Of a DNA stretch of 5,609 nucleotides, positions 1 through 5,609 are shown piece by piece. The position numbers were made by a program, and so were the translations under genes. Position 1 is the first letter of the stretch. The number at the start of each line of letters is the position of its first letter. The stretch is from Candidatus Iainarchaeum sp. (GTDB lineage: Archaea > Iainarchaeota > Iainarchaeia > Iainarchaeales > DTGL01): NCBI GenBank assembly GCA_038736825.1, contig JAVYME010000048.1:1-5609 (forward strand). The letters run 5' to 3'. The notes under the pieces were generated by a model. It made no database searches. It was given only the letters and a program-made list of their open reading frames with translations, and was not told the origin of the DNA.

Positions 1-163
1 TTTTTTCCCCAAAAAGCCCATTCCTCAGTTGAAGTGATGTGACTAGATAATGGTGTTCGTCTGTAGAAGAATAGAATTGTGGAAAAAATGCCAAGTAAAA
101 CAAGGCAAATACTAGCACACAGGCAAAAATCTTTTTTTCTTGCATGTTTAATCCGTAGTTCAT
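1..163 (-). CDS. 5' fragment (about 54 codons, continues past the left edge) of a GT-C-fold, polyprenyl-phosphate-sugar-dependent membrane glycosyltransferase, ArnT/PMT-like (GT83/GT39 type)
   Basis: Absent from the supplied ORF track (too short). The reverse complement of 1..163 starts at ATG (163..161) and reads MNYGLNMQEKKIFACVLVFALFYLAFFPQFYSSTDEHHYLVTSLQLRNGLFGEK with no stop before the window edge. A second in-frame ATG lies at 145..143. The layout is a short basic N-terminus (KK), one hydrophobic helix, then D-E-x-x-Y-x-x-x-S-x-x-L-x-x-G. This lines up with the first-loop DE motif of ArnT (PDETRYAEISREMLASG in E. coli ArnT, from memory) and of PMT-family enzymes. Only 54 residues are visible, so the family call is tentative. 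Confidence 0.5.
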   Translation of the reverse strand, partial: MNYGLNMQEKKIFACVLVFALFYLAFFPQFYSSTDEHHYLVTSLQLRNGLFGEK

Positions 164-177
164 GCAAGTATTTGCCT
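121..177. repeat. Nested inverted repeat: inner arms CTTGCATG (139..146) and CATGCAAG (161..168) with a 14-nt spacer; outer arms AGGCAAA (121..127) and TTTGCCT (171..177)
   Basis: Both arm pairs are perfect reverse complements on direct reading. Each inner arm contains one of the two candidate minus-strand ATG codons of the GT-C-like ORF (163..161 and 145..143). AGGCAAA also occurs as a direct copy at 104..110. Function is unknown; an operator or a start-codon-sequestering RNA hairpin are possibilities. Confidence 0.6.
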
Positions 178-185
178 AAGAACTG

Positions 186-191
186 TTTAAA
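186..191 (-). promoter_or_regulatory. TATA-like box (TTTAAA) for the minus-strand GT-C-like gene
   Basis: The palindromic TTTAAA is centred about 25.5 nt upstream of the minus-strand ATG at 163. There is no Shine-Dalgarno motif in between. This fits an archaeal TATA box about 26 nt upstream of the start of a leaderless transcript. AT-rich spacers produce such hexamers by chance, so confidence is low. Confidence 0.3.
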
Positions 192-247
192 AAAATGTAA
201 TGGCAAATGAGAAAAAATCGAGTCATGTACCAAAAATTGCGCTATTT

Positions 248-253
248 TTTAAA
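248..253 (+). promoter_or_regulatory. TATA-like box (TTTAAA) for the plus-strand flippase-like/GNAT gene
   Basis: TTTAAA is centred about 26.5 nt upstream of the ATG at 277, and no Shine-Dalgarno motif precedes either 277 or the GTG at 256. It mirrors the box at 186..191 for the divergent gene. If real, it rules out the GTG at 256 as the start. Confidence 0.3.
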
Positions 254-276
254 AAGTGAACACTCAAAGTTATTTT

Positions 277-1611
277 ATGGGCGTCAACAAAAGAAACATT
301 TTATTGAATGCGATCAGGATACTTTTCACCATAGTTTTGGTAGTAGCAATATTTTTCTTTGTTGGACCAGAAAGGATATTGGACTCCATTGTAAATTTCA
401 ATCTTTTTTTCCTTCCAGCAATAATACTTTTGATGGGAGCAATACTTCTTTTCGGTGCCATCGCAGTGTTTGTGCTCCTACCGCCAGAAAAAAAAATAGA
501 TTTTTCAATTTTCCTTAAAGCATATCTTTCCAGTTGGGCTGTCGGCCACATTTTTCCTGGAAAAATGGGTGAGTTTTCGCTTCCCTTTTTTTTGAAAGAT
601 GCCATCCCAACAGGCCAGACATTGGCAATAGTTCTTGTTGAAAAACTTGTTTCTTTTATAGTTCTTTTCTTTTTTGGGTTAATATTTTTTTTAAAGTTCG
701 GCTTGGATTTTTTTTCAATTACTGTATTTTCTTTGATTGCCCTAATAGCCGTTCTTTTCTTTATTGTAAGTCCTTTTGGCAGAGAGTTGCTCAAAAGAAC
801 CATTTTCAGGCAAAAAAAGGAGCTCTTTGTGGGATTTTATAGCACCCTCAAAGCCTGCGCCATAGAAAGGAAAAAAGCACTCGTGATGACAGTGGTATTC
901 ACCACCTTAAGGTCACTTGCAATGGGGCTTTCGCTTTCCTTAATACTATTGGGTTTTGGCTTTTCAGCTGATTTAATTGATCTTACTGCTCTTACTTCTG
1001 CTGTGACATTGATTGCATTTGTTCCCGTCACAATCAGTGGACTTGGCTTGAGGGAGGGCTCTTTTGTTTTCCTTTCTTCTTTTCTCGGGTTATCTAGCGC
1101 TTCAGCAGCAGGCGCAATGGTGATCGTGAATTTGATCAATTACCTTGTCGTGCTATTTATTTTCTATTTCCTGCTTTCTCGGCATATGCCAAAATTGTTT
1201 GGCAAAATAGCAAAAAGAAAACAAAAATGCAGAAAAAGCTTTTTGCGCTCTCCCCAAAAGGAAAAGCTCTTGCTTTCATGTGGCGTGATTACCAAACCAG
1301 GTGAAGCTCTAAAGACAAAGCTTGAGATAGAAAAGAAAATTGGCGGTCAGCTTGTGGGCATTGCCGGCATTTCAGTAAGATATGGTTTCATCCCAGCCCT
1401 TTTCCTTGCAGTAGACGAAAAACACCGAAGCAAAGGCATTGGAACAGAATTGGTAAAGGAATTATTGAAAAAAAAGAAAGGACCAGTATTCCTTACAGTA
1501 ACTAGACATGATTCGCCACAGTTGAGTATCTACAAAAAAAACGGCTTTAGGAAATTAATGAATTGGAGGACCATACGTGGCACCAAAACAATGATAATGT
1601 TCCATTTTTGA
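277..1611 (+). CDS. Fusion protein: N-terminal LPG_synthase_TM / UPF0104 flippase-like polytopic membrane domain (about 8 TM) plus a C-terminal minimal GNAT-type N-acyltransferase domain
   Basis: The maximal ORF is 256..1611 (GTG at 256); the first ATG is at 277 (MGVNKRN...), which I prefer. Membrane-domain hallmarks are HIFPGKMGEFSLPFFLKD and VPVTISGLGLREGSFVFL, matching the conserved P-x-G-E and GlG-x-E motifs of the MprF flippase-type family. About 8 hydrophobic segments are followed by a strongly basic linker (KIAKRKQKCRKSFLR). The C-terminal part reads QLVGIAGISVRYGFIPALFLAVDEKHRSKGIGTELVKELL ... LSIYKKNGFRKL. This is GNAT motif A (R-x-x-G-x-G, codons 1426..1443) plus the motif-B-like YxxxGF. 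Confidence 0.8.
   Translation: MGVNKRNILLNAIRILFTIVLVVAIFFFVGPERILDSIVNFNLFFLPAIILLMGAILLFGAIAVFVLLPPEKKIDFSIFLKAYLSSWAVGHIFPGKMGEFSLPFFLKDAIPTGQTLAIVLVEKLVSFIVLFFFGLIFFLKFGLDFFSITVFSLIALIAVLFFIVSPFGRELLKRTIFRQKKELFVGFYSTLKACAIERKKALVMTVVFTTLRSLAMGLSLSLILLGFGFSADLIDLTALTSAVTLIAFVPVTISGLGLREGSFVFLSSFLGLSSASAAGAMVIVNLINYLVVLFIFYFLLSRHMPKLFGKIAKRKQKCRKSFLRSPQKEKLLLSCGVITKPGEALKTKLEIEKKIGGQLVGIAGISVRYGFIPALFLAVDEKHRSKGIGTELVKELLKKKKGPVFLTVTRHDSPQLSIYKKNGFRKLMNWRTIRGTKTMIMFHF
1288..1608 (+). other. GNAT acyltransferase domain portion of the 277..1611 fusion (approximate boundaries)
   Basis: Covers residues about 345..451 of the 256-numbered ORF. Includes beta-strand-like EIEKKIGGQLVGIAGISV, the acetyl-CoA pyrophosphate-binding-type loop HRSKGIG, and YKKNGF. 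It is shorter than a canonical GNAT unless the basic segment from the in-frame ATG at 1186 is counted, which would give 141 aa. Confidence 0.6.
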
Positions 1612-1664
1612 ACAGACGGCAACAGATAAATAGATTGTGCTTCAATATAGAACGGTTGAAAAAT

Positions 1665-1670
1665 AGAAGG
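1665..1670 (+). promoter_or_regulatory. Shine-Dalgarno-like motif GAAGGA for the SDR gene
   Basis: GAAGGA ends 10 nt upstream of the ATG at 1681. An in-frame TGA at 1672..1674 excludes any longer N-terminus. Confidence 0.4.
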
Positions 1671-1680
1671 ATGAAAAAAA

Positions 1681-2619
1681 ATGATTTTGGTTACAGGGTG
1701 TTTTGGGTTTTTAGTCTCGAATCTTTGCAATAACTTAGTTAAACGCGAAAAAATAGTTGGTCTAGATTTGTTTGATGGGAAAAGAAACTTGGAGAAAGAG
1801 TTTACCTTTGTAAAATCAGAGAATTTTATCTTGGCGAGGGCAGACATTTCAAATACGCATGATTTAAGGCGCGTATTCAAAAAATACAAATTTGAGAAAG
1901 TCGTGCACTTGGCTGCCAAATCAGAACCACGAAGCCAAAAAAGCAAGGCTAATAGTTATGTGATCACCAATGTAATCGGCACCCTTAATTTGCTGGAAGA
2001 GTGCAGAAAAAACCGTGTTAAAAAAGTGGTTTTTGCATCAACTTCCAATATTTATGGCTTGGCCAAGGCTCCTTTTAATGAGGAAAAAACCAAGTGCTGC
2101 CAGATCTCTGCATATGCAATGACAAAACTGTGTGGAGAATTGCTTTGCAAAATTTACTCTACGAACTATTTCATAGATATACCCTGCTTAAGGTTTTCTA
2201 CAGTGTACGGCGAAAATGGACGCAAGGACATGGCTGTTGAAAAATTCACAAAATCCATATTAAGTGGGCGAAAGATAAAAAAATTTGGGAACGGGGAAAG
2301 CAAAAGGGATTACCTCTATGTGGGTGATGCTGTCAATGCAGTGCTAAGGTCGCTCGAACTCCGCCTCGGGTTTGAAATAATTAACATCGGTTCAGGCAGG
2401 GCAATATCAATAAATGAGCTCATTAACCTTATAGAAAAAGAAACAGGCAGAAAGGCAATTGTGGAGATCGTGCCTGAACCGCTTGAAAACTTGCCGACAA
2501 ATTTGCTTGAAATATCAAAGGCAAAACGCCTGCTCAACTGGAAACCAAAAGTGCAGATTGAAGATGGAATAAGAGAAATTTGCAGGAAAAAAGTGAGCCG
2601 GATTGTAAAAAAGAACTGA
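1681..2619 (+). CDS. NAD(P)-dependent nucleotide-sugar epimerase/dehydratase, extended SDR family (GalE/UXS-like)
   Basis: N-terminal Rossmann motif LVTGCFGFLVSNL, an acidic residue after beta-2 (VGLDLF), HLAAKS, NVIGTLNLLEE, the catalytic Ser region FASTSNIYG, YxxxK as YAMTK (Y145/K149), RFSTVYGENGR, and GNGESKRDYLYVGDAV. All are classic extended-SDR landmarks in the expected order. Confidence 0.9.
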   Translation: MILVTGCFGFLVSNLCNNLVKREKIVGLDLFDGKRNLEKEFTFVKSENFILARADISNTHDLRRVFKKYKFEKVVHLAAKSEPRSQKSKANSYVITNVIGTLNLLEECRKNRVKKVVFASTSNIYGLAKAPFNEEKTKCCQISAYAMTKLCGELLCKIYSTNYFIDIPCLRFSTVYGENGRKDMAVEKFTKSILSGRKIKKFGNGESKRDYLYVGDAVNAVLRSLELRLGFEIINIGSGRAISINELINLIEKETGRKAIVEIVPEPLENLPTNLLEISKAKRLLNWKPKVQIEDGIREICRKKVSRIVKKN

Positions 2620-2625
2620 CTATTA

Positions 2626-2631
2626 AAGGAG
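2626..2631 (+). promoter_or_regulatory. Shine-Dalgarno motif AAGGAG for the GT4 gene
   Basis: AAGGAG lies 6 nt upstream of the ATG at 2638, inside the 18-nt spacer after the SDR stop. This suggests co-transcription with the upstream gene. Confidence 0.55.
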
Positions 2632-2637
2632 CAATAC

Positions 2638-3735
2638 ATGGCCAAAATTGCAATACTTTGCCCGAGAACTCCAAGGCTTTACTCTGCAGGCATAGAAACC
2701 TCAGTAATTCATGTTGGTGATGGGTTGAAAAAAGCTGGCTTTGAAGTGGAAATCTTTACAACTGCAAAAAAGCCCGAAAAAAATGCTTGCTTGAACGGAA
2801 TTCCAATTCACGAATTTCCCGCTTTTGCCCCAAGCGATGCATATTTTTTCTCCCCGCAACTTTATTTTGCAGTGAAAAAATCCAGAGCAGACATAATTCA
2901 CTGCAATGGCTATAACAATCTCGTAACACTACTTGGAATGCTTGCAAAAAAAAAGAACCAAAGGCTGATTGTCACCCTTAACAGTTCAGGCCCTTCCTCT
3001 GCCTTTAGAAAACTTCTCTGGAGCCCATATTCCCTGCTTTTCAACCTTTTTTCAAAAAAAGCCGACTTTTTCGTCTGCGTTTCCAAATTCGAACTTGAAA
3101 TCTTTTCAAAAAAAATAAGCGCTCCACGTGAAAGATTCGTTTTTATCCCAAACGGAGTCGATATTGACTTCATCAAGAGCGTGAAAGCTGGCAAAAAAGG
3201 CAATTACCTGATTTCAATAGGCAGGCTTGTCAAAAACAAGGGCTTTCATCACATTTTGAAGGCGTTTCCAAAAGTGCTTGAAGAGTTTCCATCACTCAGG
3301 CTGAAAATTGTCGGCGAAGGCCCTTACAAGAAAGAGCTTGAAAGAATGGCAATGAAACTTGGAATTTTGGAAAAAGTGGATTTTGAGCCTTGGATTCCTT
3401 TTTCAAGGCGTGAAGACTTGGTCAGGCTTTTGAAAAAGGCAAGGGCTTTTGTGTTCTTGAGCGCTTACGAGTCACAAGGAATTGTGGTGAGCGAAGCTAT
3501 TGCTGCTGGAACGCCATGCATTGTGACTGAAAATTCTGGGTTGAAAGAATTTGTGGAGAATTCTGGCGCATTGGGTGTGAAAAACCCTGAAAATTCTGAA
3601 GAAGTAAGCGAGAAAATAATTTTGGTAATGAAAAACCCAAAAAAATTCAAGCCGAAAAAGGAAACTGTTTGGAGCTGGAAAAAAGTGATCCAGACAACAG
3701 TCAAGGAATTCAAAAAACTACAGCCTATTTCTTGA
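2638..3735 (+). CDS. Glycosyltransferase family 4 (GT-B fold, Glycos_transf_1 type)
   Basis: N-terminal KIAILCP...GIETSVIHVGDGLKKAGFEVEIFT, central LISIGRLVKNKGFHHILKAF...LKIVGEGP, and the EX7E motif as E-SQGIVVS-E (3469..3495) followed by AIAAGTPCIV. These are typical retaining GT4 signatures. The donor and acceptor sugars cannot be inferred. Confidence 0.9.
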   Translation: MAKIAILCPRTPRLYSAGIETSVIHVGDGLKKAGFEVEIFTTAKKPEKNACLNGIPIHEFPAFAPSDAYFFSPQLYFAVKKSRADIIHCNGYNNLVTLLGMLAKKKNQRLIVTLNSSGPSSAFRKLLWSPYSLLFNLFSKKADFFVCVSKFELEIFSKKISAPRERFVFIPNGVDIDFIKSVKAGKKGNYLISIGRLVKNKGFHHILKAFPKVLEEFPSLRLKIVGEGPYKKELERMAMKLGILEKVDFEPWIPFSRREDLVRLLKKARAFVFLSAYESQGIVVSEAIAAGTPCIVTENSGLKEFVENSGALGVKNPENSEEVSEKIILVMKNPKKFKPKKETVWSWKKVIQTTVKEFKKLQPIS

Positions 3736-4651
3736 GCCTGTACAGTATTTCTTCGTTTGTTTTCCTGTCAAACTTGACTATTTCTGCAACCAAACCAATC
3801 ATTATTACTTCCAATCCGAGTATGAGCAAAAGCGAGGAGAGAAGCGCTGTAGGCATGAATGGTTCTATTGCGCCTGTTTCCAAAAAGCGGGCTAGCACTC
3901 TTGATCCAGCCAAAAGCCCGCCCAAGACAAGCAGTCCACCCAATGAAAGAAAGAATTTTAGTGGGTGATAGTTGAGGTATGCTATTAATAGTGTCATTCC
4001 AGCGCGCTTTGCATAACCCCAAATGCTGCTAAAAAGCCTTGAAGAATCAGCGCGCTTCCTGAAATCAACCGGAACCTCAGCTATTTTCAAATTGTATTCT
4101 GATGCAATCAAAAGCGATTCTTGAGTGTAAGTAAAATCGCTTGAAATGTTCATTCTGAGGGCGGCTTCTCTTGAAAAAGCCCTAAAACCGGTTTGTGCAT
4201 CGCTTACCTTACAACCAGCAACAAAGTTGACTATTTTGGTTGCAAGAATGTTTCCCCAGCGCTTGCTTGCAGGCATTTCCTCTATATGTCCCTTGAACCT
4301 GGAGCCCAAAACAATGTCGGCTTTTCCCTCCAAAATCGGTTTTATTAAAAGTGGAACCTGTTTTTGGTTGTATTGAAAATCAGCATCAGTATTGACAATA
4401 ATGTCAGCACCGCACTCCAAAGCAGCATCCAAGCCTGTTTTAAAGGCTTTGGCAAGACCACGATTGCACGCATGCCTTACAACGATTGCATTAAGGCGCT
4501 TGGCAATTTGTGCAGTTTTATCTGTAGAGCCATCGTCAACCACAATGATTTCAATCTTGTCAATTCCAGCTATCTTTTTTGGAATCTCTTCAATCACTTT
4601 TGCAATTGTTTTCTCTTCATTGAAAGCAGGAATTGTAATGACAAGCTTCAT
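3725..4651 (-). CDS. GT2 polyprenyl-phosphate sugar transferase (ArnC / GtrB / dolichyl-phosphate glycosyltransferase-like) with a C-terminal two-helix membrane anchor
   Basis: MKLVITIPAFNEEKTI...IIVVDDGSTDKT...NRGLAKAFKTGL...NTDADFQY (DXD codons 4379..4387). Two C-terminal TM helices lie at about residues 231..253 and 266..291 (nt about 3779..3961) and end in IGLVAEIVKFDRK. This corresponds to the GEY-type tail motif of GtrB/ArnC-like enzymes. The length (308 aa) matches that family. Confidence 0.9.
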   Translation of the reverse strand: MKLVITIPAFNEEKTIAKVIEEIPKKIAGIDKIEIIVVDDGSTDKTAQIAKRLNAIVVRHACNRGLAKAFKTGLDAALECGADIIVNTDADFQYNQKQVPLLIKPILEGKADIVLGSRFKGHIEEMPASKRWGNILATKIVNFVAGCKVSDAQTGFRAFSREAALRMNISSDFTYTQESLLIASEYNLKIAEVPVDFRKRADSSRLFSSIWGYAKRAGMTLLIAYLNYHPLKFFLSLGGLLVLGGLLAGSRVLARFLETGAIEPFMPTALLSSLLLILGLEVIMIGLVAEIVKFDRKTNEEILYRLKK

Positions 4652-4659
4652 TTAGTGCG

Positions 4660-4663
4660 CCTC
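4660..4663 (-). promoter_or_regulatory. Shine-Dalgarno-like GAGG for the GT2 gene, overlapping the aminotransferase stop codon (TGAGG)
   Basis: The minus strand reads TGAGGCGCACTAAATG. GAGG is followed by an 8-nt spacer before the ATG at 4651..4649, and only 10 nt separate the two CDSs. This suggests translational coupling. Confidence 0.45.
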
Positions 4664-5609
4664 ACATTTTTTTTAATTCACTGCAAACAAAATCTATTTC
4701 TTCACTTTTAAGGCTTGCTCCAGAAGGCAAAGTAAGGCCGTGCAAGTGCAAATGCCTGCTTACAGGAAATTTTTCTTTGGTTTTGTAAAAAGGAAGCTCT
4801 GAGAGTGGTGTGAAAAAAGGCCTTGTTTCAATTCCTTTGGCTTTTAGGGCTTTTGCCACTTGGGCGGCTGGTTTGAATGGTTTTTCCAGGGTAATGCTGA
4901 AAAACCACCATGAACTGTCAGCACCCCTTGGAATTTCTTGGAATGAAATTCCTTTAAGCCCTGAAAGAAGGTCCAAGTAATGCTTTGCTATTTCCCGCTT
5001 TCTTTTCAAAAGCCTGTCAATTCCCTCTAGTTGCGCCAGCCCGAAAGCCGCTTGAAGGTTTGTAAAGCGAAAATTGTAACCCAAAACATCGTGGTAGAAT
5101 TTGCGGGTTTTGCTTTTTCCCTGGTCTTTCAAAATGTTTACTCTTTCAATGAATTTTTTGTTATTGCTTAAAACCATTCCGCCTTCGCCAGTGGTGATGA
5201 GTTTGTTTCCATAAAAAGAAAAAATTGAGGCATTTCCAAGCGCACCGCATTTTTTTCCAAAGTATTCTGCTCCATGGGCTTCTGCAGCGTCCTCTAAAAC
5301 AAATAGGGAGTGCTCTTTTGCTATTTTATTGATTTCTTTCATTTTTGCAGGGCAGCCATACAAGTGAACTGGAATAATGGCTTTTGTTTTTGGTGTTATT
5401 TTTTGTTCAATTTTTTTTACATCAATGTTCCAAGAGGTTTCTTCAACATCAACAAAAACAGGTTTTGCCCCGCAAAAAACAACAGCGTTTGCAGTGGAAA
5501 CAAAAGTCAGGTTTGGCACAATCACTTCATCGCCTTCTCCAATGCCTGCTGCCAAAAGAGCAACATGCAATGCAGCAGTGCCATTAGCAATACTGCTTGC
5601 ATATTTTAC
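4662..5609 (-). CDS. DegT/DnrJ/EryC1/StrS-family PLP-dependent nucleotide-sugar aminotransferase (partial; N-terminus beyond the right edge)
   Basis: The track start at 5570 is a TTG read as Met. The frame stays open to the window edge and reads VKYASSIANGTAALHVALLAAGIGEGDEVIVPNLTF, the canonical family N-terminal region, so the gene is truncated by the window. Other motifs are EDAAEAHGAEYFGK, the PLP-lysine motif SFYGNKLITTGEGG (Lys codon 5202..5204), GYNFRFTNLQAAFGLAQLE and ETRPFF. The position aminated (C3 or C4) and the sugar cannot be told from sequence. Confidence 0.92.
   Translation of the reverse strand, partial: VKYASSIANGTAALHVALLAAGIGEGDEVIVPNLTFVSTANAVVFCGAKPVFVDVEETSWNIDVKKIEQKITPKTKAIIPVHLYGCPAKMKEINKIAKEHSLFVLEDAAEAHGAEYFGKKCGALGNASIFSFYGNKLITTGEGGMVLSNNKKFIERVNILKDQGKSKTRKFYHDVLGYNFRFTNLQAAFGLAQLEGIDRLLKRKREIAKHYLDLLSGLKGISFQEIPRGADSSWWFFSITLEKPFKPAAQVAKALKAKGIETRPFFTPLSELPFYKTKEKFPVSRHLHLHGLTLPSGASLKSEEIDFVCSELKKM

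Follow-up and report, generated by a model that had tools for sequence, protein, structure and literature searches.

Which protein carries a lipid-linked amino sugar across the membrane when the gene cluster for its transfer encodes neither a GtrA nor an ArnE/F flippase? The question is raised by contig JAVYME010000048.1 from the metagenome-assembled genome (MAG) of a DPANN archaeon (Candidatus Diapherotrites/Iainarchaeum). The entire contig of 5,609 bp was analysed and is called the window here. Six coding regions fill it nearly end to end, all at the coordinates given in a preliminary description, which had read them as an Arn- or Gtr-like module for glycosylation with an amino sugar. The observation was confirmed and its interpretation was supported in part. 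The system is probably a three-component dolichyl-phosphate (Dol-P) monosaccharide system that attaches an N-acylated 4-amino-4,6-dideoxyhexose to an acceptor outside the cytoplasm, an assignment that we hold with moderate confidence. The candidate for the translocation step is a flippase-like protein fused to a GNAT domain.

Profile searches of all six proteins returned the domains that had been named, for five of the genes with both Pfam and NCBIfam; the exception was the short fragment at 1..163, which needed its orthologue. The reference proteins of the window were mapped onto related contigs to find shared genes. Each of these contigs has an orthologue of the fusion gene or of the GT-C glycosyltransferase gene; they were drawn from metagenomes (JGI), MAGs (NCBI) and genomes (GTDB) and are given as numbered loci (L001 and so on). 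All of them belong to DPANN archaea, namely Iainarchaeum, Micrarchaeota or Aenigmatarchaeota.

The flippase-like/GNAT fusion and its conserved neighbours

The fusion gene (256..1611, plus strand) was characterized with Pfam, NCBIfam, an AlphaFold2 (AF2) model and Foldseek. Its open reading frame (ORF) starts at 256; the NCBI annotation starts at the ATG at 277 and gives a product of 444 aa named 'flippase-like domain-containing protein'. The PplT/PF03706 (LPG_synthase_TM) domain spans residues 24-301 (325..1158, plus strand) with 94.3 bits (E 1.2e-26) against a gathering score of 33.4, and the TIGR00374 model 'flippase-like domain' scores 47.5 against a cutoff of 43.2. The C-terminus (residues ~331-451; 1246..1608, plus strand) is an acetyl-CoA-type GNAT of ~120 aa (Acetyltransf_1/7/10), with Acetyltransf_7 and Acetyltransf_1 both exceeding the Pfam gathering score at residues 361-435. 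It retains an intact acetyl-CoA motif A (R-S-K-G-I-G), and its invariant G/R/P/W columns are common to stand-alone homologues of 122-160 aa. PF09924 (DUF2156), the tRNA-dependent aminoacyl-transferase domain of MprF, gave no match in the fusion.

In the AF2 model (predicted local distance difference test, pLDDT, 92), a short and disordered linker rich in Lys and Arg connects an all-helical membrane domain to a compact alpha/beta domain. The GNAT domain is predicted to be cytoplasmic because of the positive linker and the requirement for acetyl-CoA. Two MprF structures, 7f47 and 7duw, were the sole membrane proteins among the Foldseek matches, with TM-scores of 0.43-0.45 to the MprF transmembrane (TM) domains over 321-345 columns, and the C-terminus matched many GNATs. 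Judged from the model, the PF03706 domain has the fold of the MprF-type transport domain, and translocation is its predicted activity. The proposal that the fusion is an N-acetylating flippase agrees with this fold and with the intact GNAT, but its flippase part is not new (PMC5898192).

The fusion of a flippase-like domain with a GNAT is a new and rare architecture. Among the best 150 matches in a library of 1.84 billion cluster representatives four covered both domains, and the remainder were stand-alone PF03706 proteins of ~300 aa or small GNATs. A metagenome scan with the fusion alignment recovered three loci, and a word-based search with the GNAT alone found one protein, the other half of the split fusion gene of the closest relative.

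The partner of PF03706 is swappable among the relatives and can be a GNAT, a methyltransferase, or a formyltransferase together with a GNAT. An S-adenosylmethionine methyltransferase is fused C-terminally to PF03706 in L004/L009 (2814-4349; 511 aa). In L006/L007 (L006 2619-5681), separate GNAT and formyltransferase genes form one operon with the PF03706 gene; the formyltransferase and PplT genes overlap by 4 nt, and a methyltransferase gene is divergently transcribed beside the operon. A gene of the alkaline-phosphatase superfamily ('Phosphodiest') adjoins the stand-alone PplT gene of L010 (149-2707). In these arrangements it is specifically the flippase-like gene to which an N-modifying enzyme is repeatedly fused or coupled, which favours a functional link between the N-modifying enzyme and the flippase-like domain. 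L031 contains a degenerate, stop-interrupted GNAT remnant (2659-3354) between the gene of a DegT-family aminotransferase and a stand-alone PplT gene.

The order of the surrounding genes recurs in L001, L004/L009, L005 and L002+L032, which stem from different samples. Its first part comprises a LegB-like short-chain dehydrogenase/reductase (SDR), a LegC-like DegT aminotransferase, a family 2 glycosyltransferase (GT2) with a TM hairpin and an optional NodU-like carbamoyltransferase. In the second part the PF03706-GNAT fusion is divergent from the GT-C gene, followed by a soluble GT2, RmlA and RmlB. In the closest relative, GCA_026396995.1, one part of the fusion gene lies on contig L002 and the other on L032; compared with the window, its membrane-anchored GT2 is 80% identical, its aminotransferase 82%, its fusion 60-66% and its GT-C N-terminus 57%. 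In seven of the eight close loci the PF03706 gene divergently adjoins the GT-C gene, and the divergent GT-C/fusion pairing was found in L001, L002, L003, L005, L010 and L011. Distant Iainarchaeum/Aenigmatarchaeota loci carry the membrane-anchored GT2 and a stand-alone PF03706 gene within 8 kb of GT-C. PF03706, a GT-C-like protein and an AglD-like GT2 are thus co-localised in the window and in 12+ related DPANN loci. Conservation as neighbours holds for GT-C, the fusion, GT2 and DegT, but not for the SDR and the family 4 glycosyltransferase (GT4), which are variable.

The GT-C gene continues past the left contig end, and the window retains 54 codons of ~495 aa (1..163, minus strand), namely TM1 and the loop-1 sequence FYSSTDEHH. 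This fragment, which starts MNYGLNMQEKKIFACVLVFALFYLAFFPQFYSSTDEHHYL, matches no Pfam or NCBIfam family by itself. It is 57% identical to the N-terminus of a 498-aa protein from a related Iainarchaeum MAG (L002), whose gene forms a divergent pair with the orthologue of the fusion gene. The collection searched contains 22 members of the family, for which some sources use the names 'glycosyltransferase family 39' or 'Dol-P-Man protein mannosyltransferase'. The family alignment shows D35/E36, an Asp-Glu pair in loop 1 directly after TM1, to be invariant across 19 orthologues. As the window holds 54 aa only, the fold was tested on the full-length orthologue from L002, which passes the Pfam model PMT_2 (27.2; gathering score 26.1). 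An AF2 model of GT-C (pLDDT 88, predicted TM-score 0.88) matched exclusively GT-C enzymes at E<=0.001 in Foldseek (ALG9, STT3, PglB and AftA), with weaker matches (E >0.001) to AftB, ALG3, EmbB, AglB and Pmt1/2. A sequence profile of the family found no match in the PDB, so this clade of GT-C enzymes is divergent. With both the conserved acidic loop-1 motif and the modelled fold, the gene at 1..163 is assigned to the GT-C superfamily, as the preliminary description had proposed. The AT-rich divergent intergenic region between GT-C and the fusion (164..276) is presumed from its sequence to be a shared promoter region.

The membrane-anchored GT2 (3725..4651, minus strand; Pfam GT2 108 bits) has a catalytic GT-A domain at residues 5-164 and, by hydropathy, two C-terminal hydrophobic helices at about residues 231-253 and 262-292. 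The two longest of its PDB sequence alignments were to the Dol-P-Man synthase of P. furiosus (5mlz) and to ArnC/GtrB, with GtrB 5ekp aligned over residues 2-292. AglJ, PpgS and a haloarchaeal Dol-P-hexose transferase were its best NCBIfam matches, all under cutoff (AglJ 134 vs 325; ArnC 46.9 vs 529). By these similarities it is a predicted polyprenyl-phosphate-type GT2 with a GtrB-style two-helix hairpin, in agreement with the earlier assignment. It is 68-73% identical to its orthologues in L001, L004 and L005, and no other gene of the neighbourhood comes near it in conservation.

Upstream of this GT2, the aminotransferase gene (4662..5609, minus strand; Pfam 369 bits) is cut by the contig end and lacks the codons for ~45-50 residues of its N-terminus. 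The two genes had been described as translationally coupled. They are close-packed on the same strand but do not overlap: 10 nt lie between the stop codon of DegT and the start codon of GT2 (TGA GGCGCACTAA ATG). In L005 the corresponding genes share 4 nt, and in L032 one directly adjoins the other. The best NCBIfam score of the aminotransferase was to LegC (320.6), followed by PseC (266) and ArnB (187 vs 631); the full-length orthologue of L005, 70% identical to the truncated protein of the window, reached 365.7 on LegC, with a cutoff of 420. GDP-perosamine synthases were the best named PDB matches (271 bits; ArnB 169 bits). These scores place the aminotransferase nearest to LegC, PseC and GDP-perosamine synthase, and the proposed ArnB-like role was not upheld.

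An enzyme forming the keto sugar had been expected to the right of the window. A LegB-like SDR of 321 aa, scoring 261 bits on the LegB model, lies directly upstream of DegT in five independent loci (L001, L004/L009, L005, L012 and L032). In view of these loci, which include the closest relative, a LegB-like dehydratase almost certainly lies just past the right contig end. The LegC/perosamine-synthase-like aminotransferase and its LegB-like SDR partner suggest that the sugar is probably a 4-amino-4,6-dideoxyhexose or the corresponding N-acetylhexosamine (HexNAc) derivative and not 4-amino-4-deoxyarabinose (Ara4N). A legionaminic or pseudaminic acid pathway was rejected, as the window and the annotated related loci contain no NeuB/NeuC/NeuA-type genes.

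The lack of a canonical flippase and of formyl-protection enzymes was borne out. The gaps between the genes of the window (164-255/276, 1612-1680 and 2620-2637) are too small for another gene; GtrA, ArnE/F, ArnA-N and ArnD are therefore truly absent from it. No annotated related locus contains a member of the GtrA (PF04138), SMR, polysaccharide-deacetylase or PIG-L families, nor do the Pfam domains listed for the related loci include ArnD/deformylase or ArnE/F. A Formyl_trans_N gene occurs in the distant loci L006 and L007 only.

Some copies of the core genes are broken. The GT-C gene is split into two ORFs of 165 and 320 aa in L003 (455-1868) and interrupted in L024 (1131-2538), and DegT of L001 (14803-15900) was called as 214 aa, with tblastn covering 365 residues. 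Frameshifts, pseudogenes or errors in the assembly of low-coverage metagenomic contigs may account for these cases. A hydrophobic ORF of 525 aa at the position expected for GT-C in L031 (6309-7886) was rejected as a family member, with an hhalign probability of 1.7% and no Pfam match.

Proposed pathway and alternative explanations

In the proposed pathway, a LegB-like NAD-dependent 4,6-dehydratase, placed there by synteny, would form a nucleoside diphosphate (NDP)-4-keto-6-deoxy-hexose or -HexNAc, whose C4 would be aminated by the aminotransferase of the LegC/perosamine-synthase-like family. The GNAT domain, held at the cytoplasmic face by the flippase-like fusion, would N-acetylate the 4-amino group. 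It might do so on the nucleotide sugar, the substrate of the known GNAT-type sugar N-acetyltransferases PseH and WecD, or on the lipid-linked sugar before flipping, in the manner of MprF. The membrane-anchored GT2 would load the sugar onto dolichyl or polyprenyl phosphate, and the PF03706 domain, with its MprF-type fold, would carry the lipid-linked sugar to the outer leaflet in place of GtrA or ArnE/F. The enzyme with the GT-C fold would finally pass the single sugar to its acceptor, most likely an already exported glycan or a surface-layer (S-layer) or other surface glycoprotein.

The acetyl group is probably a permanent substituent and not an Arn-style transient protection, because deacetylases and deformylases are missing from the annotated relatives and a methyltransferase occupies the same position in one of them. 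The transient N-acetyl protection advanced earlier was not sustained: no deacylase was found, and a permanent N-acetyl group is the more economical assumption.

A bolder version of the pathway would make the fusion a bifunctional enzyme that modifies and then flips a Dol-P-linked amino sugar, its exchangeable cytoplasmic module setting the N-substituent displayed on the cell surface. We regard this version as tentative and rather doubtful. The transport domain of MprF is a promiscuous scramblase whose cargo preference has been proposed to stem from the fused enzyme (PMC11980842), a proposal that fits the N-modifying enzymes repeatedly fused or coupled to PF03706 here. If the version held, the cluster would provide direct genetic evidence for PF03706 proteins as polyprenyl-phosphate monosaccharide translocators.

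Several points weigh against the proposed pathway. The loci compared were about a dozen, mostly short metagenomic contigs. We know of no experimental demonstration that a PF03706 protein moves polyprenyl-phosphate sugars; the cargoes shown or proposed for the family are phospholipids and glycolipids. The GNAT resembles generic protein or small-molecule GNATs, without specific likeness to PseH or WecD. All curated equivalog cutoffs are unmet, so that the identity of the sugar is not fixed, and RmlA and RmlB also occur in the relatives, which makes a route to the aminotransferase via dTDP-4-keto-6-deoxyglucose equally possible. The membrane-anchored GT2 remains 58-61% identical in Aenigmatarchaeota/Micrarchaeota loci without DegT (L018, L021 and L022), a conservation higher than expected if the donor sugar varied by cluster. 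Being strongly conserved even without the aminotransferase, it may load a common sugar, with the amino sugar going to cytoplasmic GT4/GT2 enzymes.

This last point leads to the alternative that survives best, in which the locus would contain two sub-pathways. GT2, PF03706 and GT-C would deliver a common neutral sugar (hexose or HexNAc) via Dol-P, and the dehydratase, aminotransferase and GNAT would separately produce an NDP-acetamido-dideoxyhexose used by the cytoplasmic GT4 and the soluble GT2 for a lipid-linked oligosaccharide; the fusion would merely tether the acetyltransferase to the membrane. Besides the conserved GT2 of the DegT-less loci, which contain other sugar-nucleotide enzymes, the several cytoplasmic GT4/GT2 genes of the clusters, the Wzx-like Polysacc_synt gene of L006 and the nucleotide-sugar substrates of PseH and WecD speak for such a division. 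DegT and the membrane-anchored GT2 are, however, adjacent and translationally coupled in five loci, and the N-modifying enzymes are joined to the flippase-like gene and not to the GT4/GT2 genes. Two sub-pathways are unlikely on this evidence.

The fusion could also modify membrane-lipid headgroups like MprF, GpgSDF and HexSDF, with the GNAT acetylating an amino lipid, PF03706 flipping it and GT-C being merely an envelope neighbour. All experimentally studied PF03706 systems act on phospho- or glycolipids (MprF, PMC11980842; gpgSDF, PMC12713373). A CDP-alcohol phosphatidyltransferase gene adjoins the fusion in L001, and the GT4 of the window weakly matches models of lipid-glycosylating enzymes (GlcNAc-PG synthase 36.8 bits, MGlcDAG synthase 56.7 bits; far under cutoff). 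This phosphatidyltransferase, however, occurs in L001 only, the conserved features are the divergent pairing with GT-C and the linkage to the Dol-P-type GT2 and the aminotransferase, and the linkage of PF03706 with GT-C-like and AglD-like proteins is found across archaea (PMC5898192). A role in lipid modification is therefore quite improbable.

An Arn-style scheme, in which N-acetylation lets GT2 accept the sugar and an enzyme encoded elsewhere deacetylates it to display a cationic amino sugar, has analogies in ArnA-N/ArnC/ArnD and in mycobacterial PpgS (polyprenyl-P-GalNAc yielding GalN on arabinogalactan) and in the formyltransferase gene coupled to the PplT gene of the distant L006 and L007, but is very unlikely given that no annotated related locus encodes a deacetylase or deformylase family, that the methyl group expected from the L004 partner is not removable as a protecting group, and that formyltransferase, GNAT and methyltransferase together in L006/L007 better fit diverse final N-substituents.

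Variable genes and other features of the locus

The extended SDR of the window (1681..2619, plus strand; Pfam Epimerase 169 bits, YxxxK motif) had been counted among the parts of the pathway, but it is not the oxidising step. It carries the motif S-T-S-N-I-Y-G, and the dehydratase triad motif S-T-D-E-V-Y-G is present in the RmlB orthologue of L005. Its best PDB matches are 6zl6 (database name 'Epimerase domain-containing protein'), which we take to be the UDP-glucuronic acid 4-epimerase of B. cereus, and GalE enzymes. The ArnA model scored 40.5 vs 777, and no SDR of the related loci is more than 37% identical. An ArnA-like decarboxylase or a 4,6-dehydratase was rejected, as motif and nearest structures indicate a 4-epimerase; most simply, the enzyme is an epimerase feeding another sugar.

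The gene of the cytoplasmic GT4 (2638..3735, plus strand; GT-B fold; Pfam, NCBIfam) overlaps with its 3' end the convergent GT2 gene by 11 nt. It had been counted as part of the module; with at most 46% identity to anything in the relatives, it is not a conserved core member. GT4 relatives of 40-46% identity lie beside a stand-alone GNAT and PplT in L029 (4-1585) and divergent from or near GT-C in L024 (19-735) and L013 (3529-4599), which suggests a looser, recurring association with these genes. SDR and GT4 are variable accessories outside the conserved core and probably serve to provide a further sugar of the same glycan or to attach it. Their position corresponds to that of a NodU-like carbamoyltransferase (561-567 aa) between the membrane-anchored GT2 and the fusion in L003 (3300-4985), L005 (6893-8578) and L032 (424-2127). 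With the carbamoyltransferase, this variable slot may add a further substituent (O-carbamoyl) to the sugar.

An ORF of 326 aa inserted between RmlA and RmlB (L006 8880-9860; L007 5463-6443) has faint matches to LAGLIDADG/HTH_50 and may be a homing-endonuclease-type selfish element in a sugar-nucleotide operon. In L002, RmlA and the soluble GT2 flank a gene with a Fic domain (4494-5471) that the other loci lack.

RNA genes and meaningful repeats were not detected in the window, where Rfam, tRNA and repeat scans were empty or trivial. Antisense or out-of-frame ORFs of 100-177 aa lie within the supported genes (270-803, 837-1139 and 1530-1946 on the minus strand, 4364-4711 on the plus strand), and their translations are of low complexity and rich in Lys/Phe. 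They were rejected as genes (e.g. 270..803, minus strand) and are most likely artefacts of AT-rich DNA (G+C content 34-43%).

Comparison with known systems

The Arn system (PmrHFIJKLM), which adds L-Ara4N to lipid A, follows the same logic of SDR oxidation, DegT amination, N-acylation, a GT2 with hairpin (ArnC), flipping and a GT-C transferase (ArnT); ArnC requires an N-acylated donor. Unlike it, the window lacks ArnA, ArnD and ArnE/F, and the ArnB and ArnC equivalog cutoffs are far from reached. The predicted sugar is a 6-deoxyhexose instead of a pentose, the acyl group an acetyl that is probably permanent, and the archaeal host has no lipid A. Gtr-type systems (GtrA/GtrB/GtrV; CsbB/GtcA/YfhO; PpgS/Rv3779) share the plan of a polyprenyl-phosphate GT2 with hairpin, a small flippase and a GT-C enzyme that add one sugar to an exported glycan. 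The window differs by a PF03706 domain in place of the GtrA-family flippase and by a built-in arm for amino-sugar synthesis.

To our knowledge, the proteins that move polyprenyl- and dolichyl-phosphate monosaccharides are poorly resolved: GtrA and ArnE/F are partly characterised, and the eukaryotic scramblases of Dol-P-Man and Dol-P-Glc are unidentified. Between the actions of a Dol-P-type GT2 and a GT-C enzyme a flippase is required, and it is for exactly this place that the DPANN clusters repeatedly offer an MprF-type transport domain. This compact gene set could be used to test whether PF03706 proteins flip polyprenyl-phosphate sugars and whether the fused enzyme gives cargo preference.

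In MprF and the gpgSDF and hexSDF systems, too, a PF03706 domain is coupled, physically or genetically, with an enzyme on the cytoplasmic side that changes a lipid headgroup in its charge or its amine, and the MprF synthase also has a GNAT-type fold. PF03706 genes occur in the amino-sugar lipid operons gpgSDF and hexSDF (gpgSDF, PMC12713373). In contrast to the tRNA-dependent tandem-GNAT DUF2156 of MprF, the fusion of the window carries a single acetyl-CoA-type GNAT. Its predicted cargo is a polyprenyl-phosphate sugar and not a phospho- or glycolipid, and its acetylation would neutralise an amine, whereas those systems add charge by aminoacylation or deacetylation. The PF03706 fusion partners in the PplT preprint include GT-A, GT-B, kinase and methyltransferase; GNAT is not named among them.

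An experimental precedent is Haloferax volcanii, where AglD/AglR/AglS complete the S-layer N-glycan on the outside of the cell with a mannose taken from Dol-P-Man (PMC3871713) and AglD carries a C-terminal PF03706 domain (PMC5898192). As proposed for the window, a GT2 loads Dol-P, the product is translocated and a multi-spanning transferase acts outside. The Haloferax system differs in transferring mannose without an aminotransferase or GNAT, in the experimental assignment of the flippase role to the Wzx-like AglR, and in the fusion partner of PF03706. The clusters described here indicate that genome-reduced DPANN archaea invest in surface glycans with acetamido-dideoxy sugars, a point of relevance to host-symbiont contact.

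The nearest precedent is the archaeal neighbourhood in which Makarova, Galperin and Koonin (2015) linked arCOG00899 (PF03706/UPF0104, 'AglD2/YbhN') to arCOG00563 (PMT/STT3-like) and an AglD-like GT2, and in which PF03706 proteins were inferred to flip lipid-linked sugars (PMC5898192). The window contains the same three families with the same predicted flippase role. It differs in that PF03706 is fused to a GNAT and is neither GT2-fused as in AglD nor stand-alone, in a GT-C enzyme from a distinct clade of ~495 aa, in its DPANN hosts, and in the tie to a 4,6-dehydratase/aminotransferase pair, hence to an amino sugar. The flippase assignment was thus already predicted in 2015; what is added here is the rare GNAT fusion and the built-in amino-sugar arm, and the cluster extends that prediction rather than disclosing a new kind of system.

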